NCBI GenBank assembly: GCA_047718615.1
Contig: JBDNRM010000001.1
Location: 23,093-87,092 of the forward strand
Direction: 5' to 3'
Origin: Bacillus sp. (in: firmicutes)
Lineage (GTDB): Bacteria; Bacillota; Bacilli; Bacillales; Cytobacillaceae
Length of the DNA: 64,000 bases
Below the pieces are notes generated by a model. That model had not been told where the DNA came from. It saw only the letters and a list, made by a program, of their open reading frames with translations, and ran no database searches. Shown in pieces: positions 38,927 through 61,690 of this stretch. The position numbers and the translations under genes were made by a program. Position 1 is the first letter of the stretch; each line of letters begins with the position of its first letter.

Positions 38927-38954
38927 AGCACTTCTTTATGAAGTGCTATTTTTT
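38927..38954 (+). terminator. Intrinsic terminator
   Basis: AGCACTTC-TTTAT-GAAGTGCT plus T run. Confidence 0.7.
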
Positions 38955-38972
38955 ATGCAAGGAGGAAAGAAA

Positions 38973-39857
38973 ATGGCATGGAAAAAACCGAAAGCTATTG
39001 ATATAAATGGCTATAAAACAAAAGCAACTTCCATTAATGACCTATCTAAAAACTATGGCATGGACTATTCCCGTGGATATGCCCAACAACAAGCACAAGC
39101 GGTGGCAGATGCTAAAAGAACTGGATTAAACAATCAAATGCGACAAGTGGATGATGGTGTAAAAACATCTAACGATGCCTTATCTAGAGATTACTTCCAG
39201 AAATATTTACAGCAAGCACAAGGACAAGCGGGCGCAGGTTTAAACAGCGGTATTCAAGCTGATCAGAACCTGCGTTTAAATATGAACAGACAAGCATCAT
39301 TAGCGGATGTTTATCGTAATGCTGCCACGCAAAAAGCTGGTTTAAGTTCACAACTTGCAGCTGTAGGTAATGAACAGGCTGCCAATGAAAATCAAATTTA
39401 TAATGATCGATTACAGCAGGCTTATCAGAATGCTATGAGTGATACATCTCGCAGACAAAGTGAAAATCAATCCTTATTAAATGCAGAACAGCAACAAAGA
39501 GGTCAGGACATTAATAGTGACCAATGGGCGCAATCTTTCGATAAGTCGAACGAACAATGGGACAAGAATTTTAAAAACCAAAACAGCCAGTGGCAGAAAT
39601 CATTTGATACACAGAATAGCCAATGGCAAAAATCATTTGATCAACAAGCGAAAGAATACAAAGACAATAAAGCATGGCGTGAATACACTTTCAACAATAT
39701 GAGCGCTTCAGATAAGGCTCAATTTGAGTGGACAAAGAAAACATATGGTGAAGATGCTGCGTGGAGAATGTACGAGCTAGAGTACAACGGAGAATTACAA
39801 AAGTCACAGAATAATGCTCAATTAGAATATTACAAGAGTTTGGGTTTAACGGAGTAA
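38973..39857 (+). CDS. Gln/Asn-rich ejection (pilot-like) protein, short form 294 aa
   Basis: AAGGAGG RBS before ATG 38973; Q/A/N-rich helices; 11-residue QWxxSF repeats. Confidence 0.65.
   Translation: MAWKKPKAIDINGYKTKATSINDLSKNYGMDYSRGYAQQQAQAVADAKRTGLNNQMRQVDDGVKTSNDALSRDYFQKYLQQAQGQAGAGLNSGIQADQNLRLNMNRQASLADVYRNAATQKAGLSSQLAAVGNEQAANENQIYNDRLQQAYQNAMSDTSRRQSENQSLLNAEQQQRGQDINSDQWAQSFDKSNEQWDKNFKNQNSQWQKSFDTQNSQWQKSFDQQAKEYKDNKAWREYTFNNMSASDKAQFEWTKKTYGEDAAWRMYELEYNGELQKSQNNAQLEYYKSLGLTE
39842..39848 (+). other. Predicted -1 ribosomal frameshift site G_GGT_TTA
   Basis: Perfect X_XXY_YYZ heptamer in the 0 frame two codons before the stop; -1 frame open to 40231. Confidence 0.75.
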
Positions 39858-40231
39858 CGGGAGGGGGTGATAGCACTTATAAAAACAACTATAAAACACA
39901 GCAACAATCCAATAAGAGCGGTTCTTTTAAAACATATCAATCACATTTACAGCAAGCTATCCAAAAAGGCGTTCCGTCTAATTGGGCAACTGCCCTTACA
40001 GAGTTAGTTGGAAGAGAATCTTCATGGAATCCTAGTGCGAAGAATCCAACTAGCACAGCGCATGGATATGGACAATTTTTAAATTCTACCGTTGCTAATT
40101 ACCAAAAGAAAATGGGATTGAATTATGGAAACCCTGTTGATCAGTTAGTAATGATGGCACAGTATGTTAAAGATAGATACAAGACGCCTGAAAAAGCATT
40201 GCAATTTTGGGACAAGAATCACTGGTATTAG
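39848..40231 (+). CDS. Lytic transglycosylase (SLT-like) domain in the -1 frame, no start codon of its own
   Basis: LVGRESSWNPSAKNPTSTAHGYGQFL...YVKDRYKTPEKALQFWDKNHWY; no ATG/GTG/TTG upstream of the catalytic Glu in this frame. Confidence 0.85.
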   Translation, partial: NGVTGGGDSTYKNNYKTQQQSNKSGSFKTYQSHLQQAIQKGVPSNWATALTELVGRESSWNPSAKNPTSTAHGYGQFLNSTVANYQKKMGLNYGNPVDQLVMMAQYVKDRYKTPEKALQFWDKNHWY

Positions 40232-40253: not shown

Positions 40254-43200
40254 ATGATGGCATATAACTTCAACCGAGAAAAATATAAAAAAATATTAGA
40301 TAACATGTACGGGGCCGGATCTTTTGATTCCGGTCTTTCTAATGCTCGAGAGATAGGGAGATCAAAAGCACAAGCAGAGATTGGGCAGGCAAATTTTAAT
40401 TCTTATTTAAAACAAAAGCAAAAAGACCAAGAAGAAAACGACTATGATTTACAACGTGAAAAAGCAACAGATAGCTTAGTAGATAGCGATCTAAAAAAAT
40501 ATATTAAAGACAGACTAAAATCAGGGCAAGGCTACCCAACAGAAGATGAAATCAACGCTTTCAGAAGCGATAAAACCACTAAATATGAGCATCCACGTGA
40601 TTATGCATTAAACAAACCAACATTAGCAGAAGACATCAGCATGTCTGATTTAAATAAAGAAGTAAAGAAAAATCAAGCGAAAAAGCAAGAACAGAAAAAG
40701 GCTGATACTAGCGGATTGGTCAACTTCTTCAAGAAGATGGGAAAAGATACGGACGGTAACGGTCATTCCCAAGGTGTTGATAAATTAATGGGAGCTTTAG
40801 AAATACTGGATAGACCAGGTGATGCAGTCCGTACAGGTATTAAGGAAAAAACAGAGGGAAAAAGTTTTTGGAAAGGTGCTGCAGCCGGACTAACAGGAAA
40901 AAAAAACACATCAGGGAAAGAATTAAATAAATCATTAGGCTTTGATCCTGATACAGATAACAAGGATAAGGTTCTTTCCAACATATTAGGGAATCAATTG
41001 ATTAAAAAGCTTCCACTTGGTGATATTGCCGCACCCTTTGTTAGCAAGAAAGCAAAAAACAAAATAGGGAAAGAAGCAGCGGGCGTTGGTTCTGAATTAG
41101 CATTGGACCCGTTAAATTTAATTGGTTCAGGCGCTATTGGTAAAGGTGCGGAGATATTAGGTAAATTCGGTAAAGGTGTAAGAACAGCAGAAAGAGTAGC
41201 AGAAGAAGCGCGTCCAGTGGAAGAAATTTTAGATATTCCTAGTTCTATAAAAACAGCCACCAATAATGTAGCAGATGTTCCGAAACCTAAGGCATTAAGC
41301 CAATATGATATGGATTTTAATAACGCTGTAGATGAACAATATCAATACCTTAAAAATTCTATGGGTAAAGGTGTTCAACCAGGCGGATTGGTTCGAGATC
41401 AAGAAGGATATGTAACAGGAGCGTTTGGTCGAGTTTCTAACAATCCTAAATGGTATCAAGATTTCTATAAGGTGAATAATCGTAAACCAAACAATACTGA
41501 ATTACGTGAATTAGCTGAACAACATGTGAGAGATGGTTTTAGTGATGAAGTGGGGGATGTTCCTGCTTGGAAACCGAAACAGATACAAGAAATCGATGAC
41601 CAAATAGATGAATTGAATAAATTGTTAATTGAATCTCCTGACCAAGAGCCAGCAATTAGACCGATATTAGAAGCTTTAAAGGAAGATAAGGATGGTATTT
41701 TCCAACAATTAAAAACACCTATAAAACAAGGTGGATCTAAAGATTTTGAAGCTATTAGTCCATCAGAAAGAGATGGTGGATCGTTAATTAGAATTAATGA
41801 ATCTAATATCGATCATTCTCTAGGTGATGCTTCAACATTTAGTGCGAAAGTAAATAGAACTAAACAAAAGAATAATAAGGGATTATTAAGCGATTTACGA
41901 ACACAATTTATTGATGATTTAGCACCATTAGAAAAATTAGAAAAGAAAATAACAGGTAAACTACCAAGTGCGGAGAATAGTTTATATAAACAGGCTAGAT
42001 TATTTAAAGGTAGTCCAGAAAAAGCGCACCAAATAGTAAAAGATCAACTTAATCCAATTATCAATAATATTAAGAGCAAGGGGATTAATCCAAAAGATTT
42101 AGGTGATTATGCTTTAGCTGTACATGCAAAAGATGTTAACGCAAAAGGAATTAATTCTGGTTTTACTAATGCGGAAATTGATGATGTTATTAATCGTTTA
42201 GGTTCCAACGATATGGAAGCAGCAAGAAACGAACTATTGAAAGTAAATAACAATACCCTTGATACATTGTCAAAAGGTGATAATCCAGTAATAAGCAAAG
42301 AATCTGTTCAGGCAATGAATGAAAAGTGGCCAAATTACATGTCGTTATTCCGTGCTTTTGATGATGATAAAATTGAATTTAGCAATGGATTAAGCAAAGC
42401 ATTAACCAATGGCAGCAGCCCTATAAAAAAATTAGAGGGATCCAGCAGAGAAGTGATCGATCCATTAGAGAGCATGATAAAAAATATTTTCAAAGCTACT
42501 AATGTTGCTGATAAGAATAATGTCGTTTCGAAATTAGGTGTTCTAGCAAAACAAGATACGGAAGGTAATTTCATTCGTCAAATACCTGACAATGAAGATA
42601 CTGGACGTTTGAATGTTATAAGCGCCATGGATAATGGAAAAAAAGTAAAATATGAAGTTCCGCCAGATGTTTATAGAGCCATGATGAATCTGGACAAGGA
42701 GTCTACGAATACATTAATAAAAATATTACAAAAGCCTGCATCTACTTTAAGAGCCGGCGCCACATTAACACCTGAATTTAGTTTGCGTAACCCATTACGT
42801 GACGTTCCGCAAGCGTTCATTGTTTCTAAATCAGGTTTTAACCCTATTGTCGACTTTCCGGTAGGATTATGGCAGTCAATTTGGAAAGGCCGCACGATAA
42901 AAATAGGGAACAAAGAATTTAAAACCGCTGGGGATTTATACAAACAATTTATCAAAGAAAACGGCGGATATGGTAACATAGTATCAATGGATAGAAAATT
43001 ACACCAAGAAACCCTTAAAAAGGCATTATCTGAGTCCAATACGCATTATGTAGATGTACTAAATCCAAATACGTTTAAATCTCTTTTAAAGAGCCTTTCT
43101 AACCCTTTAAACACATTGAGAAATGTAGCAGATATAAGTGAATCAGCTACAAAAGTTGGTGAATTTAGAGCGGCATTACGTTCTGGAGCATCACCACAAG

Positions 43201-44294
43201 AAGCAGCCTATAGAGCTAGGGACATTATGGACTTTGCAAGAGCAGGAGTTAGTGTAAGGGAAGCTAATAAAGTTGTAGCTTTCTTAAATGCTAATATCCA
43301 AGGTAAAAGTAAACTATGGAGAGCATTTCAGGAGAATCCAAGTAAAGTGATTGGCAAATCGATCGCTTCTGTTACTTTACCCACAATAGCAGCTATAGTT
43401 GCTCAAAATACCATGGCTAATGAAAGGCAAAGAGAAGTTCTAGATGATGCACCACAATATCTAAAAGATACCTTTTATTTAGTTCCAATTCCGGGTACTG
43501 ATCAAATTGCACGGATCCCTAAACCATTTGATTTAGCTTTTGCTTTTTCTAATACGTTTGAACGAGCAATGGATTATGCAATGAAAAATGATAAAGAAGC
43601 ATTTGACGGATTCTTAAAACAAGGCTTTTCTGCAATGTCTGTACCAACTATGCTTACGGGAATAGCGCCGATTGTAGAAGGAATGGCAAACTATTCTTTC
43701 TTCAGACAAGGTCCTATCATCCCGCAACGAGAACAGAATATGGATTATCCTGATCAATATGATATTAACTCATCTGAGACAGCAAAATTTGTTGGCAAAC
43801 AGATAAATAGGCTTACTGGAGGTGATGGTGCATTCAAAAATTTCGGTTCTCCAAGAGTAATTGACAATACAATCCAAGGGTTTACTGGTGGTTTAGGTAC
43901 TTATGCAACAAACGTCGTGGATTTATTACTTGATAGTGCCAATCTTACAGATAATCCCGAACGTCCATCGAAAGGTATTGATCAAAAAGCTGTAACAAAA
44001 GCATTTTTAGTTAATCAGTCGGGTTCAGGTGCTTCCTTAGATAAGCTATATACATTAAGGGAGAAACTTAACAAAGCAAAAGGATCTGCAAAAGAAAATG
44101 ATTCACGCTTTGATGATACGACTAAATTAAAAATGATTAATGATGCAGCAAAGGAAATCAGCGATATTAATAAACAAATACGTTCAATTCAAAATTCTTA
44201 TGATTATACTGCCGATCAAAAGAAGAAAGCGCTGGATGAACTTATTCAGCAACGAAATGAAATTGCCCGTCAAACAGTAAAAAGTATGGAGTGA
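40254..44294 (+). CDS. Large ejection / polyvalent protein with C-terminal LPD38-like domain
   Basis: 1346 aa at the end of the structural module; MDFARAG, RIPKPFD, PIIP...QYD..SSE motifs. Confidence 0.7.
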   Translation: MMAYNFNREKYKKILDNMYGAGSFDSGLSNAREIGRSKAQAEIGQANFNSYLKQKQKDQEENDYDLQREKATDSLVDSDLKKYIKDRLKSGQGYPTEDEINAFRSDKTTKYEHPRDYALNKPTLAEDISMSDLNKEVKKNQAKKQEQKKADTSGLVNFFKKMGKDTDGNGHSQGVDKLMGALEILDRPGDAVRTGIKEKTEGKSFWKGAAAGLTGKKNTSGKELNKSLGFDPDTDNKDKVLSNILGNQLIKKLPLGDIAAPFVSKKAKNKIGKEAAGVGSELALDPLNLIGSGAIGKGAEILGKFGKGVRTAERVAEEARPVEEILDIPSSIKTATNNVADVPKPKALSQYDMDFNNAVDEQYQYLKNSMGKGVQPGGLVRDQEGYVTGAFGRVSNNPKWYQDFYKVNNRKPNNTELRELAEQHVRDGFSDEVGDVPAWKPKQIQEIDDQIDELNKLLIESPDQEPAIRPILEALKEDKDGIFQQLKTPIKQGGSKDFEAISPSERDGGSLIRINESNIDHSLGDASTFSAKVNRTKQKNNKGLLSDLRTQFIDDLAPLEKLEKKITGKLPSAENSLYKQARLFKGSPEKAHQIVKDQLNPIINNIKSKGINPKDLGDYALAVHAKDVNAKGINSGFTNAEIDDVINRLGSNDMEAARNELLKVNNNTLDTLSKGDNPVISKESVQAMNEKWPNYMSLFRAFDDDKIEFSNGLSKALTNGSSPIKKLEGSSREVIDPLESMIKNIFKATNVADKNNVVSKLGVLAKQDTEGNFIRQIPDNEDTGRLNVISAMDNGKKVKYEVPPDVYRAMMNLDKESTNTLIKILQKPASTLRAGATLTPEFSLRNPLRDVPQAFIVSKSGFNPIVDFPVGLWQSIWKGRTIKIGNKEFKTAGDLYKQFIKENGGYGNIVSMDRKLHQETLKKALSESNTHYVDVLNPNTFKSLLKSLSNPLNTLRNVADISESATKVGEFRAALRSGASPQEAAYRARDIMDFARAGVSVREANKVVAFLNANIQGKSKLWRAFQENPSKVIGKSIASVTLPTIAAIVAQNTMANERQREVLDDAPQYLKDTFYLVPIPGTDQIARIPKPFDLAFAFSNTFERAMDYAMKNDKEAFDGFLKQGFSAMSVPTMLTGIAPIVEGMANYSFFRQGPIIPQREQNMDYPDQYDINSSETAKFVGKQINRLTGGDGAFKNFGSPRVIDNTIQGFTGGLGTYATNVVDLLLDSANLTDNPERPSKGIDQKAVTKAFLVNQSGSGASLDKLYTLREKLNKAKGSAKENDSRFDDTTKLKMINDAAKEISDINKQIRSIQNSYDYTADQKKKALDELIQQRNEIARQTVKSME

Positions 44295-48532: not shown

Positions 48533-48660
48533 CACTAATATGAATTAGCGTTAATTACTATAAGTTAATTAGGAAGGGGGCAATAGATTTTACTGTTGAT
48601 ATTACTGTATTTTGAGTTATTTTGTTCATTGGGGTGAACTATCGTGAATTATTGATATAG

Positions 48661-48679
48661 TCCTGATATGATTATGGTC
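48661..48679 (+). other. attP-like junction core between the tandem copies
   Basis: Phage right end + TCCTGATATGATTATGGTC + phage left end; no comGA sequence on either side. Confidence 0.9.
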
Positions 48680-48751
48680 AAAGCTTAGTAATCCCTATAA
48701 AACTAGCATTCTGGGGGATTAATCATTAGGCTCGACCACATTTTGACCACG

Positions 48752-49873
48752 TTACTTTTCATTTACCTTTTTAGAGAACACATTTGCAACATCTGACTGC
48801 AATCCTATAGAAGCATGACTATAAGTATCCAACGTTATTTTTACAGAAGAATGACCTAAACGGTCAGCCACTATTTTAGGATTTGTGTTAAGTTCCAAAA
48901 GCAAAGTAGCATGAGTGTGTCTCATATCATGAAATCTAATTTTAGGAACGCCAGCAATATTTATATATTTTCTAAATGGTCTATTTAAACTGGTTGGTCT
49001 AAATGGTTTTCCATCCGGATGACAGAAAATCAATCCGTTGTCCTGATATTCTGGACCGAACTTCAACCTGTAGGCATTGTTTTTGTTAATCCGTTCCTTT
49101 AAAATAGAGGAGACAAAAGAATCTATGGCAACTTTCCTATATGAAGAAGGTGTTTTCAGTAATCCAATCTGAACACCTTTTTTTGTTTCTGTAATACTCT
49201 GACGTATATTGATAATATTCTTGGAGAAGTCTGGGTCTATTCGTCTTAACCCCATAACTTCTCCTTTTCTTAATCCAGTAAAGGCAGCAACTGTGAAAAC
49301 ATCATAATAAAATTCATCGTATTTTTTTGTAATGTTTAAAAAATGATTTAACTCTTCGAAGGACCAGGTATTTTTTTTCTTATTCTTAGGGTTGCTAATC
49401 GTAATGTTTTCTAAAGGACTTTTAGAAATTATTTCTAAATGTACAGCATGTTTAAAAATCATTTTAGCAACGGATAATACCTTATGGGCTGTATCTGGTT
49501 GTAAACTATCTAACAATTTACTAACAAAAGCTTGTCCATGAACAGGTTTGATTTCCTGGATTTTATTGTTCCCAAAAAAAGGATTGATCCACTTATTAAT
49601 CTTGATTGAATATTGTTCTGATGTTGTTTCTTTCAATTTATATTTGTAGCTTTCATACCAATCAAGAGAAAACTCTTTGAATGTTAATTCTTTTGGTGCA
49701 ATCCAAGAACCATTATTCACTTCATAGACAAGTTCGTTCAATGCAGTTTCAGCTTCTTTTTTCGTCTTGAAACCACTCTTTGTTTTTTGCTTCCGTTTCC
49801 CCGTAATCGGATCTTTTCCTATATCAACAGTATAACTCCATTTATCGCCCCTTTTGCGAACATAACCTTTCAT
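48752..49873 (-). CDS. int: Tyrosine integrase (copy 2)
   Basis: Identical to 5495..6616. Confidence 0.95.
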   Translation of the reverse strand: MKGYVRKRGDKWSYTVDIGKDPITGKRKQKTKSGFKTKKEAETALNELVYEVNNGSWIAPKELTFKEFSLDWYESYKYKLKETTSEQYSIKINKWINPFFGNNKIQEIKPVHGQAFVSKLLDSLQPDTAHKVLSVAKMIFKHAVHLEIISKSPLENITISNPKNKKKNTWSFEELNHFLNITKKYDEFYYDVFTVAAFTGLRKGEVMGLRRIDPDFSKNIINIRQSITETKKGVQIGLLKTPSSYRKVAIDSFVSSILKERINKNNAYRLKFGPEYQDNGLIFCHPDGKPFRPTSLNRPFRKYINIAGVPKIRFHDMRHTHATLLLELNTNPKIVADRLGHSSVKITLDTYSHASIGLQSDVANVFSKKVNEK

Positions 49874-50148
49874 TGAGAAATCTCTCCCTTTTTTCGGCTT
49901 GTCCCTACAAGAAGGCAATCTTTCACTTTGATAATAACGTCAGCTGGCAACTCTTCAACATAGATGATCTTCACAATAATCTACTCCTCACCCCAATATC
50001 AGAACAAAACAGAACGTACGTTTCTATTTTTGTTAATTCTAATATATCATGGTTCATGGTAGTGAAGGTGATTATTTTGTCGAAAAAAAATAGGTATATG
50101 ATGACATATTTCGACAATTCAATATGAACGCTTATATATCAAGGGATT

Positions 50149-50487
50149 TTACTCACTAATTTTTGTCATATTTTTGACTATTTCAGCCCATTGCTTGACT
50201 TGTTCTGGAGTAATCCCTTCTTTTTCTAATTGTTCACCTAAAACCATCCATTCGCCGCCAGCATCTTTTATTTCTTGAGGTACATCTTTTTTGTTATCGA
50301 TTAAATCACCAATATCTACTTCTAAAACGTTTGCAATCTTAACCAACATTTCAAGACTTGGTTTTGCTGCTTCATTTTCGAGTTTAGATATAAACGACTT
50401 GGTGACATCTACTTTTTCACCTAGTTGTTCTTGGTTTAATTTCATTAATTTTCTATATTTTTTAATATTTTCTCCATAACCCTTCAC
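50149..50487 (-). CDS. SinR-like prophage repressor (copy 2)
   Basis: Identical to 6892..7230. Confidence 0.85.
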   Translation of the reverse strand: MKGYGENIKKYRKLMKLNQEQLGEKVDVTKSFISKLENEAAKPSLEMLVKIANVLEVDIGDLIDNKKDVPQEIKDAGGEWMVLGEQLEKEGITPEQVKQWAEIVKNMTKISE

Positions 50488-50685
50488 AATAACACCACCT
50501 TGAATACAAAATAACTCATTTATATTATGCCTTAAAACTTATGTAAATTGAATGGTTTATCAACATTTTATAAACCGCACTCAAATTAATTCGAATTATT
50601 TTCTATAAACTTGTTGACTAATAATTCAACTTAAATGTATAATGAAATAGAAGTTGAGTGATAATGAAACTAAACAGAAAGTGAG

Positions 50686-50886
50686 GTGGAATTATTGGTC
50701 AACAACATTAGAGATATCAGAATAAAAAGAGGATTAACTCAAAAGGAATTTGCTTCCATGTTAAATATTTCCTACGATTATTTGAATAAACTTGAAAGGG
50801 GGAAAAAAACTCCAAGTCTAACTTTAGCTGTAAGAATGGCTAGATCATTGGATTGTAAACTAGATGATATTTTTTTTATCGATTAA
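50686..50886 (+). CDS. Cro-like regulator (copy 2)
   Basis: Identical to 7429..7629. Confidence 0.85.
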   Translation: MELLVNNIRDIRIKRGLTQKEFASMLNISYDYLNKLERGKKTPSLTLAVRMARSLDCKLDDIFFID

Positions 50887-50921
50887 GTTGAATTATAAGT
50901 AAACTTTGAGGGGGTAGTTGA

Positions 50922-51107
50922 ATGGAAAAAAAAGATTTTCCGTTAATGATGACAGCTAATGAAATTTCGCAAATTTTAGGTGTTAGCAAACGAGTAGCAT
51001 ATGAAATCATGGATGAGAAAGATTTTCCGTTAATTCGTGTAAGAAGAACTAAACGTGTTAACCGTGATGATTTCTTTAAATGGTTAGATAAAAAGAAGGT
51101 GTCCTAA
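50922..51107 (+). CDS. Excisionase-like protein (copy 2)
   Basis: Identical to 7665..7850. Confidence 0.75.
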   Translation: MEKKDFPLMMTANEISQILGVSKRVAYEIMDEKDFPLIRVRRTKRVNRDDFFKWLDKKKVS

Positions 51108-51108
51108 A

Positions 51109-51528
51109 TTGCCAGTTTCTCACATGCATTTATTTGAAAGAGTAAAAGGAAATAAAATCAGATATGAGATTTTGGAAAGAGATAATTACCAATGTGTATT
51201 ATGTGGCAGCACTGAAGAATTAGAAGTTCATCATATGTTAGCACTTTACTTAGGAGGGAAATCAGTCACAGATAATTTAATAACTTTATGTTCATTCTGT
51301 CATCTATATGCACCAGAGACAGGAACAGAAGCAAATAAAAGGTATCTAAAGCAAAGAAATAAAGTTGCTTATGAACAATTAATGCAAATTCCTGATTTAA
51401 ACGCAATGGTTGTTGTTGCTTGTGTTGAATTCATCAAATCAAGGTTCAATGAATATATCGAGAAAGGATTCATAAACAAGGAGCAAGCAGAAGAAATACT
51501 TTTTTATGAATCAGAAAAATTATTTTGA
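51109..51528 (+). CDS. HNH endonuclease (copy 2)
   Basis: Identical to 7852..8271. Confidence 0.85.
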   Translation: MPVSHMHLFERVKGNKIRYEILERDNYQCVLCGSTEELEVHHMLALYLGGKSVTDNLITLCSFCHLYAPETGTEANKRYLKQRNKVAYEQLMQIPDLNAMVVVACVEFIKSRFNEYIEKGFINKEQAEEILFYESEKLF

Positions 51529-52151
51529 GGAGTGAGTATAGGTGAAAGTGACAATTATTAAAGGTCCGATGTTTGAGAAGGCAGAAAAGAAAGCTCACGC
51601 TTTATTGTATCAGATCATCAGACAAAAAATGATTGAAGATGAAATGAAAAAATCCCAAAAGGAGGATAAGTAATATGAACAAACAAAAATTCATGGAGTT
51701 TGTATCTAAAGCTTATGACAAAGGTTTTTACATCACAATAGCTGATTACTCTCCTCAGACAACAAAAGCAGAAGCAATGGAAGTAGCTGCAGAGTTAAGT
51801 GAAGTTTTAGAACTTCCAGTTCACAAAGAAGATTATAAATCCACTCATTCTTACGAAGTGGGTAGCGTTAACGAAAAAATCAGAGGGCATTTCTTTTATG
51901 GTCCAGTTAATTTTCTTGATGAAGATGTCGATCTGAGTGGCGGTGAGGATGTTGCAGTCTGAAATATTCTCTTATATCAATGCTCGTTATGAAAATGACG
52001 GTGTCCTCGTTGATGCAGATGAAGTGTACGAATCGTTTCAGACTGATTTTGATAATGGTGTCCCAATCACACTAATTGATGAAGTTATGGAAGATTTCTT
52101 ATCTATCCATTCTATAGAAAATATCCAAATTAAATGGGAGGGTAAAATCGC

Positions 52152-52727
52152 ATGAAAAATTTAGAAACAGTGTTAGAAGAATTAGAAGTATTGGAGCAAG
52201 TGGAGGAACAAAAGAATTTCATCGTTAACAACTTGGATTCTGCAACAGAAGCAAGCAGACGCATCGCTTATTTCGAAGAAAAGAAACAGGAGATCGACGC
52301 AATCATCGAAAACCAAGTTGCTCCTTTTCTTGCAAAAATCGAAAAAATCAAAGAGTGGGGGGAGGAAGCCAAGAAAGAGTTTATTGATAAGCAATCGTAT
52401 TACACCACTACATTAGAAGTGTATTTACGTGAAGAAGTTGCTCAACAAGAAGAAGCTGGTAAGAAAGCGAAGAAATCAATCAAACTCCCTTATGGAAAAA
52501 TCTCATTAAAGAAACAGCAGCCGGAGTTTAAAAAGGATGAAGATACATTACTGGAGTTCGCTATCAGTCAAGGATATGCAAAAAACAAATGGTCAACAGA
52601 ATGGGCAGAGTTGAAGAAACAATGTGTTGTCCATGAAGGTAAATTGGTGTTCAAAGATACTGGAGAATTTGTTCCTGGTGTAGAAGTTGTGGAGAAAGAT
52701 GAAAAATTCGAGTTCAAACTAACATAA
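52152..52727 (+). CDS. Gam-like nuclease inhibitor (copy 2)
   Basis: Identical to 8895..9470. Confidence 0.75.
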   Translation: MKNLETVLEELEVLEQVEEQKNFIVNNLDSATEASRRIAYFEEKKQEIDAIIENQVAPFLAKIEKIKEWGEEAKKEFIDKQSYYTTTLEVYLREEVAQQEEAGKKAKKSIKLPYGKISLKKQQPEFKKDEDTLLEFAISQGYAKNKWSTEWAELKKQCVVHEGKLVFKDTGEFVPGVEVVEKDEKFEFKLT

Positions 52728-52794
52728 GGCAAATAAGTACGCCAACTTATTTGCCCCATTGGAAAATATGTCACGGTAATTATAACACAAGGAG

Positions 52795-53481
52795 ATGGAT
52801 AGTGTGTCTGAAACTAATAAATCTTTAGTAAAAAAATTATCCGAAGTAATGCGCCAAGTTAAATACATCGAGAAAAAGGGTTTTAATAAATTCCATAAAT
52901 ATAAATATGCTACTGAATCCGATGTTGCGGAAAAGGTTCGTGAAGTCCTTGCTGATCAAAACGTCATGATGGTACCTAATTTACTGAATCATACTACCAG
53001 AGAACATACAACAGCTGCAGGGAAAACGGAATACATTGTATCAGTTGATATGGAGTTTAATTTCTATGATGGAGATAGCGGGGAACATATTGCATTTCGT
53101 ATGAGTGGAGACGGTCAGGATGCTGGAGACAAAGCAATTTACAAAGCCATTACAGGTGCTCAAAAGTATGCCCTTATGAAAGTATTTATGATTCCAACTG
53201 GAGACGATCCAGAAGCTGATAGCGGCACTGACGATAAAAATGAATCTCCTAATTCAAACAATAATCAATCACCTAGCAAAAATGCTCCTATGGCTTCTGA
53301 TAAGCAATTGAATTTCGTTAATAAGCTTCTAAAAGATGTTTCAACTGCCAAAAACATTACAGAAGATGAAGCTTATAAAACGCTGAAAAAACATATGAAA
53401 AAAGATATGGAATGGTTTACTGCCGATGATGCCAGCGACGCAATACAACTTCTATCTAATTCATTAAAAAAAGGAGCTTAA
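52795..53481 (+). CDS. ERF recombinase (copy 2)
   Basis: Identical to 9538..10224. Confidence 0.9.
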   Translation: MDSVSETNKSLVKKLSEVMRQVKYIEKKGFNKFHKYKYATESDVAEKVREVLADQNVMMVPNLLNHTTREHTTAAGKTEYIVSVDMEFNFYDGDSGEHIAFRMSGDGQDAGDKAIYKAITGAQKYALMKVFMIPTGDDPEADSGTDDKNESPNSNNNQSPSKNAPMASDKQLNFVNKLLKDVSTAKNITEDEAYKTLKKHMKKDMEWFTADDASDAIQLLSNSLKKGA

Positions 53482-54574
53482 TTGCTCCTTTGACAACTAT
53501 GGAGACAAAGGAAGGTGAGAAATTGATTAAATTCATTAAACGACTTATCTGTAAGTACAGAGGTCATGATTGGGAGACTTATACCATTAGTACAGGTTAT
53601 TGGAGTAACGATATTGAACAATCAGGATACTGCAAACGTTGTAAATTGGATACTCATGGCGAGTATGAGTAATGTCGCCATACGATCATTAAACGAAACA
53701 GGAGTGGTTGCATGGAAGCTGTCAAATACAAGCAGCCAGAAGCTACATACATCGAAGAACAGGAAGAATGTATCTTATTGGAGGATAAACATTGGATATG
53801 GCCCGTAATCTTTTGGGCTGTATTCCTTATCATAACGATTCTAATGGGGATGGGGGTTGTTGAAGGATGAAAAAAGGCGATTCTGTTACTGATTTTAACG
53901 GTCATTCCTATTTTATACACGATATTAATGGCCCTTTAGTAAAAATAGCTCATTACTTCAAATACAAAGTAAAAGGCATCTATGAATTTAAAATTGATTT
54001 GGCCTATAGAATGGATTTAATCCAAGCAGATTTGGAAGGATACAGCGAGGAAGAGATCAATTTCCTTATCAATCTAGCATTAGATACAAACGATAAGGAA
54101 TGGTTCCAGGAGCTTATGAGAAAGCGAGAATCATTGAAAGGTAAGGAAATAATGAATGAGTAATCAAATCATAGTAATCTGTCCATATTGTAACACTCCG
54201 AGTATTTTTATGAGCAGCAAAGAATTTTATGCAAACGATTATAAAACTAATTTATACGTATGCAGTCCATGTGATGCTTATGTCGGAACACATGGAAACA
54301 CCAGACAACCATTAGGAACCTTGGCTAATAGGAATCTCCGTGAAATGAGAAAAAGAGCTCATTCTTTATTTGATCCATTATGGAAAAAGAGAAAAATGAG
54401 TCGTTCAGCAGCCTATAGTTGGATGCAACAAGTAATGGATTTACCACCTGAGAAAGCACATATAGGTATGTTTAACATAGAGCAATGCGAGAAGTTAATA
54501 AGCCTTGTGAAGCAATATAGAAATATCAAGTAATCAAAATTTGTATTGCGTTTCATTAAAAAGGGGGATTTAAA

Positions 54575-55237
54575 GTGATTAATAAAAATCTGGAATTTGA
54601 ATTTGTCCATAAAGATTTATATGGAGTAGCGATAGAAGTAGTTAAAAAATTTGTTGGAGATGGTCTTTCTCGTCCTATTCTTAGCTATGCATTACACACC
54701 AAAGAAGGCGATATATTAGCAACAAATTCACACAAAGCAATTCATATTAGGGAGATACATGGATTTAATGAAGATTACCTAGTAAACCCTAAAAATTACA
54801 TGTTTGCAAAAGGAACTTATCCGGATCTCTACAATGTAATTGGAAGTGATTCACATAAAAAATCAATTACATTAAATAAAGAACAAATAAAATTATGGCT
54901 CCAACTTTTTAAGTCTATTAACAATACTCTAAAAATGATGAAAAGCAATATTATAAACAAAGCTGTAAAAATGAGTTTTTTAGAAAACTCTGTGACTATT
55001 GAAGTCATGGTTGATTCGGAAAACAGCTTTAAAACGATATTGCCGACTACAGAATTAGTTAAACCTGATTTCGATAAGATTACCTTTTCAGTTGAGATGA
55101 TGAGGGATGCACTAGAGGCGCATTTTAAGTTAAACTCCGAGCTGATTAATATATATTTCCATGGTCAAATGAGACCAATAATCATGAATGATGAATCTAT
55201 TGTTAAGACAATAATTTTGCCAGTAAGAACTTATTAA
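54575..55237 (+). CDS. Beta-clamp-like protein (copy 2)
   Basis: Identical to 11318..11980. Confidence 0.6.
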   Translation: MINKNLEFEFVHKDLYGVAIEVVKKFVGDGLSRPILSYALHTKEGDILATNSHKAIHIREIHGFNEDYLVNPKNYMFAKGTYPDLYNVIGSDSHKKSITLNKEQIKLWLQLFKSINNTLKMMKSNIINKAVKMSFLENSVTIEVMVDSENSFKTILPTTELVKPDFDKITFSVEMMRDALEAHFKLNSELINIYFHGQMRPIIMNDESIVKTIILPVRTY

Positions 55238-55276
55238 CACAAGAATTATTAAGTTTCATAGAAAGGAGGGAAAGAC

Positions 55277-55732
55277 TTGCAACGTATTTTAGATGCATGC
55301 TGCGGCAGTCGGATGTTCTGGTTCGACAAGCAGCATGAAGATGTTGTGTACATGGATAATCGCCAATTAAGCGACACGTTATGTGATGGAAGACAGTTAA
55401 TTGTAGCGCCAGATATAATTGCAGATTTTAGAAATATGCCATTTGAAGATAACTCCTTTTATCTCGTCGTATTCGATCCACCACATTTATTAAAGGCTGG
55501 CGAAGATTCTTGGTTGGCCAAAAAGTACGGAAAACTTGGCCAAGATTGGCAGAGAGATATTGCAGCTGGATTTAATGAATGCATGCGAGTGCTTAAACCG
55601 AATGGAACACTTATTTTTAAGTGGAATGAGGATCAAATAAGATTACCAGCAATCCTTAAAGCTATTGATGCAAAACCGTTGTTTGGAAATCGCAGAAGCA
55701 AAACGCATTGGCTAGTATTTATGAAAAATTAA
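55277..55732 (+). CDS. Orphan methyltransferase (copy 2)
   Basis: Identical to 12020..12475. Confidence 0.85.
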   Translation: MQRILDACCGSRMFWFDKQHEDVVYMDNRQLSDTLCDGRQLIVAPDIIADFRNMPFEDNSFYLVVFDPPHLLKAGEDSWLAKKYGKLGQDWQRDIAAGFNECMRVLKPNGTLIFKWNEDQIRLPAILKAIDAKPLFGNRRSKTHWLVFMKN

Positions 55733-57503
55733 GTTTCATAGGCGGTGAACAAATGTATAACAGCCAGGTACACCTATTCGCACCGACATTGGAGCAACTG
55801 ATTGAAGAACTGATCAGTGAGCGAGTCGAAAAGTATTTCATCGAAAGAACAATCAAGCTCGGAGATACACCTTTCCATTACTGCAAAGTGCTTACGAAAA
55901 ACCATGTGTATGACGTATCAGTAACAGAAGGTTATGAGCATGAATCGGAAGTTAACCACGTTGTTAGTAGAAAAAATTTGAGTAAAAGGTTTATAAAAGG
56001 ATATTTCAACGATTGGAAACTAAAGAGTAAAGGAGTCAACTAAAGAGGTGAGTAAGACAATAATCAAGGATTTACGTCGTATTGAATTTTTTACAAGAAA
56101 ATCAAAGGAGCTGGAGGCGATCCATCCATCCAAGATGGACGCTCGCTGGCGCAGGCGCTGTATCCGGTTGATGAATTATAAGGCTGCTATGCATAAGTGG
56201 ATTAAGTGATAGTAGACAACTTATATAAGGAGTTGGAGTAATGAAATGTTATTACTGCCATCAAGTATGTGAAGGTTTAGTTTTTGAGCAGGGGAATTTT
56301 TCTATTGTTGCTCATAGAGATTGCGCAGTTAAGAAGCTAGAAAAAGATTGCGATTTAATTATACGAAGTAAATAGATAGTGCGTAGTAGATAACTATTAT
56401 GCGTTGGAAAGGGAGAGACGAATATGAAAACAGAACACGAAATTCAACAAAATAACATTACGGAATTGCTAAAATTGATTGACCAGAATCCCGAATTGCC
56501 AATTGTGCCTATGGTTGATGGTCAACTTTGCGGTGATGATTGGAGTTACTATATGGGCAAGTGGGGACAGGCGGAAATTGACGAAGTTTACCAGGGAGAT
56601 GAACGAGTTTACTTTAAATCTTCCGATGAAGAAGAGTTAATTGGAGAACGTGGAGAGTTTATTTTTGATAACGAATATCCAAGCCGAAAATCCTTAACTG
56701 ATGAAGAAGAAAAAATAGTCGAAAAGAAGGCTGAAGAATACGTAGAAAGTCTTCCTTGGAAAAAAGTCATAGTAGTTTCAATTGAATTACCATAATGGAT
56801 AGTACGAAACTTATGCGTGACATAAAAGAAGGAGATATTTGTATGGGTTTTATTATCAAGTGTACTAATTGTGGGCAATTATCAGAATTAGAAGACGGGT
56901 TTTTCAAAAAGGCAAATGAAATCCAAGTTTATGATTCTGGTGAATTTTTAGTATCGATTAAGTGTACTGGATGTGGGAATGAAGTTGTTAGTAATTATGA
57001 AGAATAATTTGCATTACGAAAATATGGCCCGAGATTTGTCCGATTCTTGGGCCGAACTGGACCGAGAAAACAATTCGTAAACTGGGAAACAAAATGATAG
57101 TTCTGTTGATTAAGAAAGGGTGGAGAACATGGAGATTACAGTAAATGAACAACCTCAACGTTTTTATTTAGCTATTAATAATAAATGGGAGCCTGCAGTT
57201 GGTCATGAAATTAAAGTGGGGGAATACAGATTTTGCGCTATACCATTGAGCAATAGGATTAACATTTCGGAAGTGACGTCTGGTGCAAGGGTGCTAAATA
57301 TTCCGATGACTTTAGAAATTACAATGGCAACAGCATCAAAAGAGGGTTCAGTTAAGTTTTTTTATAAAGTCGGCGAATCGTTAAAGCGAATTATTGGGCG
57401 TGCATTTGATTTTAATGAACAACTTGCAAATATGAAGAAAACAGCATTTGAACGTTTGGGTGAAATGCCACCAATTGAAAATGTTGATGTGGAGGCGATC
57501 TGA

Positions 57504-57743
57504 TTGGCTAATAAGGTCCACAAATTAAAGTTATGGCCAGAATACTTTGCTGCTGTTGCAGATGGTACAAAGCCATTTGAAATCAGAAAAAATGACCGTG
57601 ATTTTCAAGTAGACGATACATTGTTATTACAAGAATTTTTACCAGAAAGACAAGCGTTCACTGGTAGGTTCGTATCGAAGAAAATTATCTACATTACAGA
57701 TTTTGCTCAGCAGGACGGCTATGTTGTTATGGGGATTAAATAA
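57504..57743 (+). CDS. ASCH/DUF3850 protein (copy 2)
   Basis: Identical to 14247..14486. Confidence 0.85.
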   Translation: MANKVHKLKLWPEYFAAVADGTKPFEIRKNDRDFQVDDTLLLQEFLPERQAFTGRFVSKKIIYITDFAQQDGYVVMGIK

Positions 57744-58599
57744 GGGAGGGATCATTAAGGCCAGGTACAGGGGTTAGAAAAGTTTTACCTATAGTAGGAG
57801 ACATTCACATAACTGGCATAGTCAATGTAAGTGGATATATGGAGTTCTTAGTATTGCAGAGTACTAAACTATCGCTGGTACTTAAAATGGCAAATAGCAT
57901 TGTTCTAGCGGTGGAGGAAGTGTTAAGAGAATGATTGTTTATTCTTGCAAGGAATGTGATCAAATACAGATTGATTACAAGGTCATACCTAAATTAAAGT
58001 GTCCCTGCTGTGGCAAATACATGGATGCGGAAGAGGAGGAATAAGGTGAGTTTTATTTTTGAAAAGCATTATACAGAGAAGTTCGAAGTTACACTTGTAT
58101 GGAAAAATTTCATGAGTTATAAAGCATTCAGTAGCGTTAGAAAGGATAAACCAAAATGCGAATTATGTAATTCTTCATTCAATGAAAGTCATACAGTACA
58201 TTTAGCTTTTGTTAAAGGAAAGGCTAATAAATTAATTTGTACCAATTGTGCAGATAAAGCAGTAGCTGGTGGAGCTGAAGAAAGAGTGAGAGAAAAATTT
58301 GTTTAACAAAAAAAGAGGATGCACGAATATTATCCTTGCATCCTCCCCGGATCACGTTGTTTCTTTTTCTCAACAAGTTCTAAATATCTAAGACCATAAC
58401 GGACAAGTTCATCAACAGCTATGCTGCGGTTATTCTTTCTTTTGTTAAAACGGTAATCTTCTACCAAATTTAATGTATCAGGGTTCCAGGATATAGTAGT
58501 AGTCGGTTTAGATGAATCAATTCTTACATGCATATTTGTGTACACTCCTTTTATTTTGGATTTACGTAATACGGTAATAAGTTATTGCAATGGTTTTGT

Positions 58600-58842
58600 T
58601 TAATCGGTTTCATCTACTAGAACGAAAAGATCACCAATATCACATTCAAGAATTTCGCAAATGGCAGCAATTGTATCGTAATGGATTTGGTTATTATCGT
58701 TCTTGTGTAATCGATCTAAAGTTTTTCGTGCAGTAGGGTGGCCGGCGTTTTTTAACATACGTTCTAGCTCAGCGATAGAGCGAATTTCCCTTTCTGCCAT
58801 CAAAATAGCTAATCTATTTTTTACTTTCATGATATATAACAT
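58600..58842 (-). CDS. HTH regulator (copy 2)
   Basis: Identical to 15343..15585. Confidence 0.8.
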   Translation of the reverse strand: MLYIMKVKNRLAILMAEREIRSIAELERMLKNAGHPTARKTLDRLHKNDNNQIHYDTIAAICEILECDIGDLFVLVDETD

Positions 58843-59034
58843 CCTTTCACTTTTTTATACTTTGTTATTATATATACTTAACAATATACTAAAAAGTTTC
58901 ATTTTATGTCAATTAAATTTTACCAAATTATGAAGATATGATAGGATGTGTTAATTTTTGCTTGTCAAAATTGGTAAGAAGTTATAATATTATTATATGA
59001 AGTTATAATATTTGCCTTCGGGGGAGGTGATTCG

Positions 59035-59253
59035 ATGAAGGTGAAACATCAATTAAAAGTTCTTATGGCGAAGCACAACATCAATTCGGTAAAGGAATTA
59101 AGCAGGCAAACAGGGATATTTTATGGAACCTTACTTAACTTCTATCATCAACGCTACGAAGCTTTTAATGCACCGTTGATTGCTACATTATGTGAGTTTT
59201 TCGGATGCAGGATTCAAGATTTACTTGTTTTAGAAAAAGAAAAAGTTTCTTAA
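59035..59253 (+). CDS. HTH regulator (copy 2)
   Basis: Identical to 15778..15996. Confidence 0.8.
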   Translation: MKVKHQLKVLMAKHNINSVKELSRQTGIFYGTLLNFYHQRYEAFNAPLIATLCEFFGCRIQDLLVLEKEKVS

Positions 59254-59340
59254 AAGGAGATGATATTGCGAAAGGTTTGGTGGAAGTTCACTTCAAGAAC
59301 CTTTACATTAGTGTTATCAAAATGAATTGGAGGAAAGTGA

Positions 59341-60075
59341 ATGGATCAATTGCAAAAGGTTTTCAATTATGGACAAAGTCTTATTCGTACAGTCATAAAG
59401 GATAATGAGGTCTGGTTTGTTGCAAAGGATATTTGTGAAGTATTAGAAATTAATAATCCCAGTCAAGCTCTTTCAAGGTTAGATGAGGATGAAAAGAATA
59501 CCATCATTTTAAATGAGGGTATTGGTAACCCAGAAAAATCTATAGTTAATGAATCTGGATTATATAGTCTAATACTTGGAAGTCGAAAAACTGAAGCGAA
59601 AGTCTTTAAGAGATGGGTAACTCATGATGTTCTTCCTACAATACGAAAGACTGGTGGTTATGTAGCAAATGATGATTTATTCGTGGATACTTATCTAAAA
59701 CATGCGGATGAATCCACAAAACTTTTATTTAAAGTTACTCTTGAAACTGTCAGAAAACAAAATGAAGAAATAGCTGTTATGTCACCAAAAGCAGAATATT
59801 TCGATGCTCTTGTTGATCGCAATCTTTTAACTAACTTTAGAGATACTGCTAAAGAACTACATGTAAAACAAGGTTTTTTTATAAATTGGCTTCTTGATAA
59901 TAAGTATGTTTATCGAGATCAAAGAAAGAAATTAAAACCATATATGCAATATGTTCCAAATCTCTTTGAATTAAAAGATTGGGAGAAAAACGGAAAAGCG
60001 GATGCACAAACACTTATTACTCCTAAAGGGAAAGAAACATTTCGTTTGCTACTCCAAGAAAAGAAAAAAGCCTAA
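59341..60075 (+). CDS. BRO-N/ANT antirepressor (copy 2)
   Basis: Identical to 16084..16818. Confidence 0.9.
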   Translation: MDQLQKVFNYGQSLIRTVIKDNEVWFVAKDICEVLEINNPSQALSRLDEDEKNTIILNEGIGNPEKSIVNESGLYSLILGSRKTEAKVFKRWVTHDVLPTIRKTGGYVANDDLFVDTYLKHADESTKLLFKVTLETVRKQNEEIAVMSPKAEYFDALVDRNLLTNFRDTAKELHVKQGFFINWLLDNKYVYRDQRKKLKPYMQYVPNLFELKDWEKNGKADAQTLITPKGKETFRLLLQEKKKA

Positions 60076-60204
60076 CGTTGGCAGACGTTAGACAAGTATT
60101 TCGATCAGTTTATAAATATTATGCTCTTGTAGCCCATTATATACCAAAAATACCTTGTTGGCTACAGGAGCGTACGTTCTAAATAACACATAGAAGGTGG
60201 TTTT

Positions 60205-60936
60205 ATGGCTAGGCCTCAAAAAGAAGGATTAGACTACTTTCCTTTGGATGTTGATATAGATCAAGACGATAAGGTTGCATTAATAGAGGCGCAGCACGGA
60301 GTTACTGGCTTTGCCATTGTAATCAAACTTCTTATGAAAATATATAAGAATGGCTATTATTACAACTGGACTGAAAAGGAACAATTACTCTTTTCTAGGT
60401 CTATTAATGTAGACATTAACTCGATTAATGATGTCATAAACGATTGCTTAAAGTGGGAATTGTTTTCTAAAACTGTTTTTGAAAAACAAGCTATCCTTAC
60501 ATCTAAAGGCATTCAGCTTAGATATTTAGAGGCTGTTTCTAGGAGGCAGGAAGTGAAAATACCAAAAAGTCACTTACTTATTTGTGGTGATAAGGTTAAT
60601 GACTACAAAAACTTAGTTATTGATAACATTAACGATGAAAATGACGACATTAATCCCCAAAGTAAAGTAAAGAAAAGAATAGTAAAGAAGAGAAAAGAAG
60701 AGAAACATAAATATGCTGAATTTGTCTCGATGCTTCCTTCAGAACATAAAAAACTTTTAGATCAATTCGGACAAGCAGGGACTGATGATCGAATTGAACG
60801 TCTGAATCTTTACAAAGGATCAACAGGCAAAAAGTATAAGAGTGATTACTTAACTATCTTGAATTGGGAACGGAAGAATTCTAACGACAAGGGAGGAAGT
60901 AAGGTTGAAACCGATCAATACTCTAATCTCTTCTAA
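60205..60936 (+). CDS. DUF4373 replication initiator (copy 2)
   Basis: Identical to 16948..17679. Confidence 0.85.
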   Translation: MARPQKEGLDYFPLDVDIDQDDKVALIEAQHGVTGFAIVIKLLMKIYKNGYYYNWTEKEQLLFSRSINVDINSINDVINDCLKWELFSKTVFEKQAILTSKGIQLRYLEAVSRRQEVKIPKSHLLICGDKVNDYKNLVIDNINDENDDINPQSKVKKRIVKKRKEEKHKYAEFVSMLPSEHKKLLDQFGQAGTDDRIERLNLYKGSTGKKYKSDYLTILNWERKNSNDKGGSKVETDQYSNLF

Positions 60937-61690
60937 GATTCAATTTGCAGGAGAGAGAACGTGTGAAATCTGTGGCTGTATAGTGCCTATCATCATTCGT
61001 GCAGGAAAAGAATATAGCCATTGTCTGGCTTGTGATAATAAGGTTTTAGAAAAAGAAATGGAGGATTTCCGCAAGAAGTCAGAAGCGGAAGCCTTCTTCT
61101 GGAATAACAGCCTGGTACCAAGTGATACGGAAAAGGCAGTATTTGATAATTACGAACCTAAGAACCAAACACAAGAGGATGCCTATTTTAAAGCGAAATG
61201 GTATGCGGAGCACTTTCATAAGCTGATTGCCGAAAAAGGCTTTAATTCACTCTTATTTCAAGGCTCATACGGTATAGGAAAATCTCATTTATCTCACTCG
61301 ATAGCAATGCAATTGAAACAAAAACAATGCAAAGTGATCTTCGCAGACGTTCCAATGCTTATGAAGAAGATACAGAGCACATATGGAAGCTATAAAGATT
61401 CACAGATTACTATTTTTGAAAATATAGCAAAGGCTGATTTAGTTATATTAGATGATCTTGGAGCTGAGTATGTAAAAAGCAAAAATGGTGAAGAGTCATG
61501 GGCGGTAGATACGCTCTTCTCCATCATCGGTTCAAGAGTAGAAAAGCCGAACATCTTCACCACGAATTATGATGCGAACGGATTAATTAACAAATATGGA
61601 ACTCATGGTGGAAGAATTGTTTCTAGAATGTTTAAAGGCACCAAATCAATCAAAATGACTGGTGACGATTATCGGGTGACTGGCTTATGA
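60905..61690 (+). CDS. DnaC/IstB-like loader (copy 2)
   Basis: Identical to 17648..18433. Confidence 0.9.
   Translation: MKPINTLISSKIQFAGERTCEICGCIVPIIIRAGKEYSHCLACDNKVLEKEMEDFRKKSEAEAFFWNNSLVPSDTEKAVFDNYEPKNQTQEDAYFKAKWYAEHFHKLIAEKGFNSLLFQGSYGIGKSHLSHSIAMQLKQKQCKVIFADVPMLMKKIQSTYGSYKDSQITIFENIAKADLVILDDLGAEYVKSKNGEESWAVDTLFSIIGSRVEKPNIFTTNYDANGLINKYGTHGGRIVSRMFKGTKSIKMTGDDYRVTGL

Follow-up and report, generated by a model that had tools for sequence, protein, structure and literature searches.

A late gene of a prophage-like unit in Bacillus sp. most probably yields two proteins, a short one and one to which programmed -1 ribosomal frameshifting would join a lytic domain encoded in an overlapping frame. 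The gene lies in a stretch of 64,000 nucleotides (GenBank assembly GCA_047718615.1, contig JBDNRM010000001.1, positions 23,093 to 87,092 of the forward strand), which is called the window in the following and to which all positions refer. Its open reading frame (ORF) in the 0 frame, ORF0, begins with the ATG at 38973 and ends with the TAA at 39855-39857, the last codons being TTG GGT TTA ACG GAG TAA. A first-pass annotation, made from the sequence alone, had pointed to the slippery heptamer G_GGT_TTA two codons 5' of this stop, and the reading of the 0 frame bears this out. One gene would then be decoded in two ways. Most ribosomes would stop at 39857 and release a helical virion protein of 294 amino acids, while a fraction would slip back by one base on G_GGU_UUA (39842-39848) in a tandem -1 slippage, the P-site tRNA-Gly re-pairing with GGG in place of GGU and the A-site tRNA-Leu with UUU in place of UUA. 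AAC would be read next, and the chain would run on as ..SLGL-NGVTGGGDS.. into an SLT-like domain, giving a long form of 419 amino acids with ..SLGLNGVTGGGDSTYK as the predicted junction peptide. By way of their common helical N-terminal part (N part) both forms would co-assemble in one virion, in which a minority of the subunits would carry the hydrolase and would open the Gram-positive wall at infection. A modest and fixed efficiency of the shift is plausible because the frameshift of lambda G/GT, by analogy, works at a low level without a strong RNA stimulator. We infer the ribosomal nature of the shift, its efficiency, the location of the products in the virion and the benefit of mixed subunits.

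The two reading frames at the junction

The -1 frame is open from past the TAA at 39812 to the TAG at 40229-40231, the two frames overlap from 39815 to 39854, and a shift at G_GGT_TTA leads to a fused product of 419 amino acids. Direct reading agrees with the first-pass annotation in that the TAA at 39812 closes the -1 frame upstream, that no ATG, GTG or TTG stands in this frame ahead of the catalytic Glu codon at 40016, and that the two products, put at 294 and about 419 amino acids, have 294 and 419. Near-cognate codons in the -1 frame are limited to ATT 39821, ATA 39827 and ATC 39959, and no Shine-Dalgarno-like motif was seen before them.

The same annotation had recognized an SLT-like domain in the -1 frame, and this assignment is upheld by the NCBIfam model NF052397 AggPromo_Cterm, which the C-terminal part (C part) passes at residues 340-419 with 66.6 bits against a cut-off of 40. 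Pfam gave no match to the fused 419 amino acid protein at E <= 0.01, the gathering score of SLT (PF01464) not being reached by the window's copy. On homologous domains the Pfam SLT model just passes in one relative (locus L006, 22.3 vs 21.3 bits) and falls just short in another (L013, 20.8). An alignment of 14 homologous sequences (alignment A2) has 40 invariant columns, which consist of the catalytic Glu-Ser pair E57/S58 and 38 others. When a structural model of the C part, with a predicted local distance difference test score (pLDDT) of 76, was compared with the PDB by Foldseek, the top 30 matches were all lytic transglycosylases, headed by MltE, MltF, phiKZ gp144 and Slt70, with probabilities up to 0.96, TM about 0.5 and weak E-values (0.27-2.6). 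Judged by profile match and predicted fold, the label of an SLT-like muralytic domain appears reasonable for the C part.

Two further elements were noticed at the junction. A second in-frame XXXYYYZ heptamer, T_TTG_GGT at 39839-39845, overlaps the first by three bases and is probably incidental, since the relative L005 has AGC TTG instead. An ORF of 46 amino acids in the third frame (39867-40007) has a GTG start abutting the GGGAGGGGG tract; its spacing to this Shine-Dalgarno-like tract is zero and nothing points to a real protein, and the ORF is most likely spurious.

Conservation of the junction among relatives

The DNA of 40-odd loci, with relatives reached by alignment-based scans, was compared and the junction was read in each; megablast of the region against phage records gave no match, nor did a single-protein scan of genome contigs. 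A protein search yielded proteins with the N part only as well as full-length fusions in frame. Conservation of the heptamer and of the two-frame layout in homologues, which the first-pass annotation had proposed as a check, was found: the -1 layout occurs at the same aligned junction in 13 diverged lineages, the window included. This shared junction lies about 30-40 residues past an invariant YGEDAAWR motif. The codons of the site read TTG GGT TTA in the window and L005, TCG GGT TTT in the Pagevirus phages and L018, NNG GGT TTT in L020/34, L023, L041, L024 and L044, NNG GAT TTT in L006, L008, L035 and L033/43, and TTA AAT TTT in L012/25. The sole non-canonical case among the 13 split lineages is L010 with TTG TCT TTT (G_TCT_TTT). 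Among the carriers of the -1 layout are Page and Pascal, lytic phages of Bacillus megaterium, as well as three more contigs of Pagevirus-like type; for Pascal the predicted junction peptide would be ..SSGFSGVAGG... In a tree of the N parts the window's well-supported clade of four rows is -1 throughout, and the layout has thus been retained over long branches. An explanation of L024 (Lederbergia) as a plain indel in the G run of the Gly codon was tried and rejected, as G_GGT_TTT is present, the -1 frame is open from the heptamer and the 0-frame tail is merely longer.

The closest comparison is with L005, which comes from an independent sample. Its N part is 76% and its -1 ORF 82% identical to the window, with synonymous sites saturated, and its junction is the same as that of the window, TTG GGT TTA ACG GAG TAA CGGGAGGGGG. 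Over 125 codons of the -1 ORF, nonsynonymous divergence (pN) between the two is 0.12 and synonymous divergence (pS) 0.80. Every other pair of downstream ORFs, including the pair L013/L014 with its +1 layout, gave pN of 0.08-0.29 against pS of 0.57-0.82. The downstream ORFs are under purifying selection.

Another finding was the conservation of the site at the level of single nucleotides. Codons were counted in 22 representatives plus L011, L029 and L054, which makes 25, and preceding bases in all loci read. The codon before the Phe or Leu ends in T in 25/25, the pattern NNT TTT/TTA is present in 25/25, and the Phe at the junction is always TTT and never TTC in every case read. The base 5' of the P-site codon is G before GGT (17/17), G before GAT (5/5) and A before AAT (5/5), so that a matching base precedes in 27 of 28, although the residue encoded there varies (Ser, Ala, Thr, Leu, Gly, Met, Arg). 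Background usage in these genes is 0.39 for GGT, 0.70 for GAT, 0.61 for AAT and 0.63 for TTT, and 0.20 for G in third position. As a control, the nearby invariant YGEDAAWR motif shows free variation in its third positions. By these counts diverged homologues have kept the heptamer and the frame layout to a greater degree than codon usage would predict.

What follows the junction varies. The downstream modules are SLT-like only, M23 with or without SLT-like, NlpC/P60+SLT, or a VgrG3-like_C lysozyme. Pfam domains begin 6-42 residues past the junction, and of the 19 split loci surveyed, 10 lack an ATG, GTG or TTG ahead of the domain; the VgrG3-like domain begins at residue 6 past the junction and the first ATG comes at residue 45-47. 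In database proteins which consist of the N part only, 17 further cases end in ..F-L-P or near variants (..F-L-P-E, ..F-K-M-P).

Two side observations concern these modules. In L020, L023, L034/L048 and L041 a full C-terminal lysozyme of the VgrG3-like type known from the type VI secretion system (T6SS) is attached (PF21277, E = 8e-52), and a phage virion protein would thus share a type VI effector-type muramidase. The lytic modules are in some pairs far more alike than the N parts (L006 vs L033, L008 vs L035 and L001 vs L018, for example 73% vs 36% amino acid identity), and from these identities the junction seems to be a point of module exchange.

The same junction is also found in two other layouts. 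In four lineages (L013/36, L014, L030/32 and L038) the layout is +1 and the 0 frame ends in CCC TAA (ATH/ACT CCC TAA). CCC accounts for 3% of the codons for Pro in these genes and nevertheless stands before the stop in 4/4 of these lineages; the window itself has no CCC_stop +1 site and uses the -1 layout. Metabacillus kandeliae GX 13764 contains two related prophages, L030 and L032, both with the +1 CCC_TAA junction. After about 73 codons the M23 module of L030 parts from that of L032, and it comes to a stop at codon 80, which leaves the lytic module of L030 disrupted.

In-frame fusions make up the third layout, with 14 lineages. They are colinear with the predicted trans-frame product of 419 amino acids, as seen in P0014 with ..FYKSGFNNVQEGGGYSNYKKT against ..YYKSLGL-NGVTGGGDSTYKNNYKT in the window. 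In-frame homologues without a conserved heptamer, which the first-pass annotation had named as damaging to its proposal, are the smaller part: the canonical heptamer is kept in register in 11 of the 14 lineages (G_GGT_TTT/A, A_AAT_TTT, G_GAT_TTT). In these heptamer-bearing fusions the -1 frame has a stop 0-2 codons past the heptamer, which in 9/11 takes the form TTT-TAA. Because the same heptamer is kept with a -1 stop so close behind, the fusions may also make both forms. It can tentatively be proposed, with somewhat more doubt than confidence, that the heptamer is a family-wide device which sets the ratio in both directions, split genes slipping to the long form and fusions to the short form, so that nearly all members would make both. 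In the fusions the slip would give the short protein, which resembles the tau/gamma products of dnaX. Small changes of register at the junction would then switch the major form from one to the other, and the site would be an evolvable dial for the share of virion subunits that bear a wall hydrolase, with +1 shifting at CCC_TAA as a third solution. Opposed to such a two-way device are the three fusions without a heptamer and the confounding of the statistics by the conservation of the amino acids Phe-Asn. The layouts lie interspersed in the tree of the N parts. Its well-supported branches require a minimum of three changes for the -1 state and parsimony gives eight, on a tree too poorly resolved for an exact count of origins.

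Alternatives and points against frameshifting

Frameshifting has to be weighed against the possibility that the muralytic ORF is a separate gene, which would be translated by reinitiation or from a non-canonical start past the 0-frame stop, aided by the Shine-Dalgarno-like GGGAGGGGG at 39859-39867. This is improbable. The strong purine tract just past the stop, present in the window and in most relatives, would suit such a start, but it is found in the in-frame fusions as well, where it encodes a Gly linker, and in the window no near-cognate start lies 5-13 nucleotides past it. A GTG does stand a few codons past the junction in L010, L033, L013 and L038, but in L010 and L033 it directly adjoins the purine tract, with zero spacing. 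Neither the window nor L005 has an ATG, GTG or TTG within the first 60 codons of the -1 frame past the junction, the first of the window lying past the catalytic Glu, and at 10/19 split loci the catalytic domain would be cut short by any canonical start. Public annotation lists the lytic protein of Pagevirus as a gene of its own, but separate genes leave the conserved register of the heptamer and the CCC_TAA sites unexplained. An independent start of the lytic ORF was rejected on the absence of usable starts in the window and the split loci.

Even less likely is an indel, introduced by sequencing or assembly, or a recent inactivating mutation, by which a truly in-frame gene would have been split. 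In-frame homologues do exist and the T and G runs by the junction are prone to indels, but the concern about an indel error, already voiced with the first-pass annotation, is largely removed by L005, where a separate sequencing run gave the identical junction despite saturated synonymous divergence. The 13 lineages moreover share the -1 direction at the same codon, among them at least six independently isolated plaque-forming Pagevirus phages, the downstream ORFs are without decay, and both tandem copies in the contig are identical. Just as unlikely is a change at the level of RNA, in which slippage of RNA polymerase on the T run would give rise to a subpopulation of mRNAs one base longer or shorter, the ribosome itself not slipping. 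A short run of T (TTT or TTTT) does form the conserved core, but the runs have only 3-4 T, and productive polymerase slippage normally needs about 7-9 identical bases. Conservation tracks the X_XXY_YYZ register including the base before the P-site codon, which matters for the re-pairing of tRNA and not for the polymerase, and CCC_TAA, the site of the +1 lineages, is a P-site/stop motif of the ribosome. Transcriptional slippage yields the same outcome of two products and is known in bacteria and phages (PMC5009743). Scarcely credible, finally, is the -1 ORF as an unexpressed relic of a former fusion, with the 294 amino acid protein alone being made. The failure to find a stimulatory RNA structure would fit a relic, but the low pN relative to pS of the window and L005 and the similar values in every other pair do not, nor do the 40 domain columns, catalytic Glu-Ser included, which are invariant across 14 sequences; stops and indels would have accumulated at such divergence.

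Several observations weigh against programmed frameshifting or parts of its interpretation. The frequency of in-frame XXXYYYZ heptamers in the long ORFs of this prophage is 0.72% per codon, and the chance of one heptamer within the 14-codon overlap is about 10%; because of this the window alone is not significant and the weight falls on the comparison with relatives. Neither a hairpin nor a pseudoknot of a stimulatory kind was found downstream of the window's site (fold z = -0.04 and +1.29), and no upstream Shine-Dalgarno-like element was seen at it. Such elements are frequent at -1 sites, though not present at all of them. No downstream hairpin is common to the relatives, L008 alone reaching z = -2.8. 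G-quadruplex folding with ViennaRNA gave 2-layer quadruplexes in about 10 of 23 relatives and none in the window, at energies that are implausibly large. The G-rich tract past the heptamer is also kept in the in-frame relatives, and because it encodes a Gly linker there, it is only a candidate for a stimulatory role. Some P-site codons re-pair poorly (GAU to GGA; UCU to GUC in L010), and given this the exact slip mechanism may vary between lineages. Three in-frame lineages (L017/28, L019 and L031/46) have no heptamer, and two forms are therefore not obligatory in the family. The label of an ejection protein for the product of ORF0 is burdened by the N part having no likeness in sequence or fold to any characterised ejection protein in PHROG, the PDB or the Foldseek comparisons with PDB and BFVD.

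Precedents, annotation and genomic setting

Recoding that adds domains to structural proteins of phages has precedents in the decorations of capsids and tails and in tail chaperones. C-terminal extensions attached by frameshift or fusion are represented by the capsid proteins 10A/10B of T7/T3 and by the immunoglobulin (Ig)-like domains of Lactobacillus phage A2 and the Listeria phages A118, A500 and PSA (PMC5009743). As in the systems with Ig-like domains, one structural gene would give a short and a C-extended form, and relatives attach the extension by -1, by +1 or in frame. In contrast to these, the cargo is a peptidoglycan hydrolase, the carrier is helical and probably internal or at the tail tip rather than a subunit of capsid or tail tube, and in-frame relatives also keep the heptamer. 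With lambda G/GT (G_GGA_AAG) the gene shares a -1 shift on a heptamer of the G_GGN_NNN type near the end of the upstream ORF. The layout of G/GT is conserved across phages and sets the ratio of the products, about 30:1 (PMC5009743). Those chaperones are absent from virions, whereas for the gene described here two structural products and an enzymatic extension are expected, and the module is of the podovirus type and has no tape-measure context. For the +1 relatives the counterpart is CCC_stop, the established +1 site of the tsh genes of Listeria phages (PSA/A118/A500, CCC_UGA) (PMC5009743). The four relatives resemble these in having a rare CCC before the stop (5% in Listeria, 3% here) and the lytic module in +1; they differ in their stop, which is TAA and not TGA, and the window in using -1.

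The best functional precedent for an enzyme on only some of the subunits is Tal, the tail-associated lysin of Tuc2009 and TP901-1, both lactococcal phages, the virions of which mix subunits with the full-length M23 lysin and truncated ones (PMC6115969). Full-length Tal helps against stationary-phase, cross-linked walls, and the mixed forms specialise virions for different states of the wall (PMC6115969). The two forms of Tal, a siphovirus baseplate protein, arise by proteolysis, whereas here they would arise at translation. A further parallel is the internal core of T7, where, as around ORF0, the gene order is similar and a transglycosylase is attached to one of two proteins. The tail genes of T7 are followed by those of a helical protein and a giant one (gp14-gp15-gp16), and gp16 has an N-terminal lytic transglycosylase. 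The enzyme there is in frame on the giant protein with no frameshift, and no similarity in sequence or fold to the T7 proteins was found.

The closest named phages to the prophage are the podophages of Bacillus megaterium in the genus Pagevirus. In Page, Pascal, Pony, Pavlov, Palmer and Pookie a 'hypothetical protein' is paired with a 'lytic tail (fiber) protein', the former being the homologue of the N part (46% identity over 97 residues, PHROG 13399). Synteny and the -1 layout, at TCG GGT TTT CTG GGG TAG, are like those of the window, and the lytic module differs in being NlpC/P60+SLT. The records of Page and Pascal annotate the lytic tail protein as a separate gene. In Pascal (L001 6459) it is given a GTG start inside the NlpC/P60 domain, and in Page (L002 6564) the annotated start is about 35 codons further downstream; these differing starts are consistent with no real start existing. 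In L006 the first Met of the lytic ORF falls past the HxxxD motif of M23. The word 'frameshift' is absent from the genome announcements of Page, Pascal, Pavlov and Palmer, of which those of Page and Pascal mention a lytic tail protein, and literature searches found neither a description of this frameshift nor anything on recoding which doses a virion-borne peptidoglycan hydrolase. While the class of mechanism is known, what appears to be new is the hydrolase as cargo, the carrier, the family (Bacillaceae podophages and prophages including Pagevirus) and the keeping of the heptamer in fusions. If the frameshift is real, it would correct how an entire family of podophages and prophages of Bacillaceae is annotated, in which the lytic protein is now called as a truncated separate gene. 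It would also be a genetic counterpart to proteolytic Tal, with the best copy number of lysin per virion testable in the culturable Page and Pascal, and a junction solved by -1, +1 and in-frame arrangements would be a compact natural system for the origin and upkeep of frameshift sites.

The protein of ORF0 matches PHROG 13399 only, a group of unknown function. Its AlphaFold model (pLDDT 78.8) is predicted to be nearly all helical with one helix of about 150 residues; comparison with the PDB by sequence gave a spurious match only, and Foldseek against PDB and BFVD generic long-helix matches only. ORF0 is positioned in a late operon after tail genes and beside a giant polyvalent protein, as is the case for internal core or ejection proteins of podoviruses, and the order of GH32 tail protein, ORF0 and a protein of 1346 amino acids with an LPD38 domain is the same in relatives. 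It is gene order and the all-helical model which suggest an ejection protein. The 5' neighbours are late structural genes, a PKD/closure-like protein of 594 amino acids, the GH32 tail protein and a glucosaminidase fragment. The coordinates of the features are collected in Table 1.

Table 1. Features of the frameshift gene and its surroundings (positions in the window)
Feature	Position	Strand	Remarks
Shine-Dalgarno AAGGAGG	38959..38965	+	7 nucleotides 5' of the ORF0 ATG; read from sequence
ORF0, 0 frame, 294 amino acids	38973..39857	+	all-helical (model) Gln/Asn-rich protein; proposed short product
TAA closing the -1 frame upstream	39812..39814	+	5' edge of the 14-codon overlap
Slippery heptamer G_GGT_TTA, proposed -1 shift site	39842..39848	+	0-frame X_XXY_YYZ register
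-1 frame segment	39848..40231	+	127 codons + TAG; linker NGVTGGGDS... and SLT-like domain
0-frame stop TAA	39855..39857	+	two codons past the heptamer; 2-3 codons past it in 12/13 split lineages
G-rich tract GGGAGGGGG	39859..39867	+	10 nucleotides past the heptamer; Gly linker in the -1 frame; candidate stimulator
SLT-like / AggPromo_Cterm muralytic domain	39989..40228	+	fused residues 340-419; catalytic Glu codon 40016-40018
1346 amino acid protein with LPD38 domain	40254..44294	+	syntenic in all relatives; context for the proposed internal/ejected protein

The window, part of a genome of 4.87 Mb, covers a prophage-like unit of 43,257 bp which is repeated head to tail, the two copies of the frameshift gene being identical. 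The repeat spans 5300-48560 and 48560-64000, with zero mismatches from about position 6000 on, and represents either a tandem lysogen or an assembled concatemer. Directly 5' of the ribosome binding site of ORF0 there is a terminator-like hairpin at 38927-38955 (AGCACTTC..GAAGTGCT followed by a T run), in view of which ORF0 may be where a new unit of transcription starts or may lie behind an attenuator; a GTG 'start' proposed by the ORF finder at 38943 falls within this hairpin. Further upstream, an ORF of 123 amino acids at 38319-38690 matches the first 55 of 123 positions of Pfam Glucosaminidase and continues into a hydrophobic tail; it has the look of a muramidase gene, truncated or hybrid, just 5' of the frameshift gene. 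At the corresponding place L005 carries an ORF of 98 amino acids.

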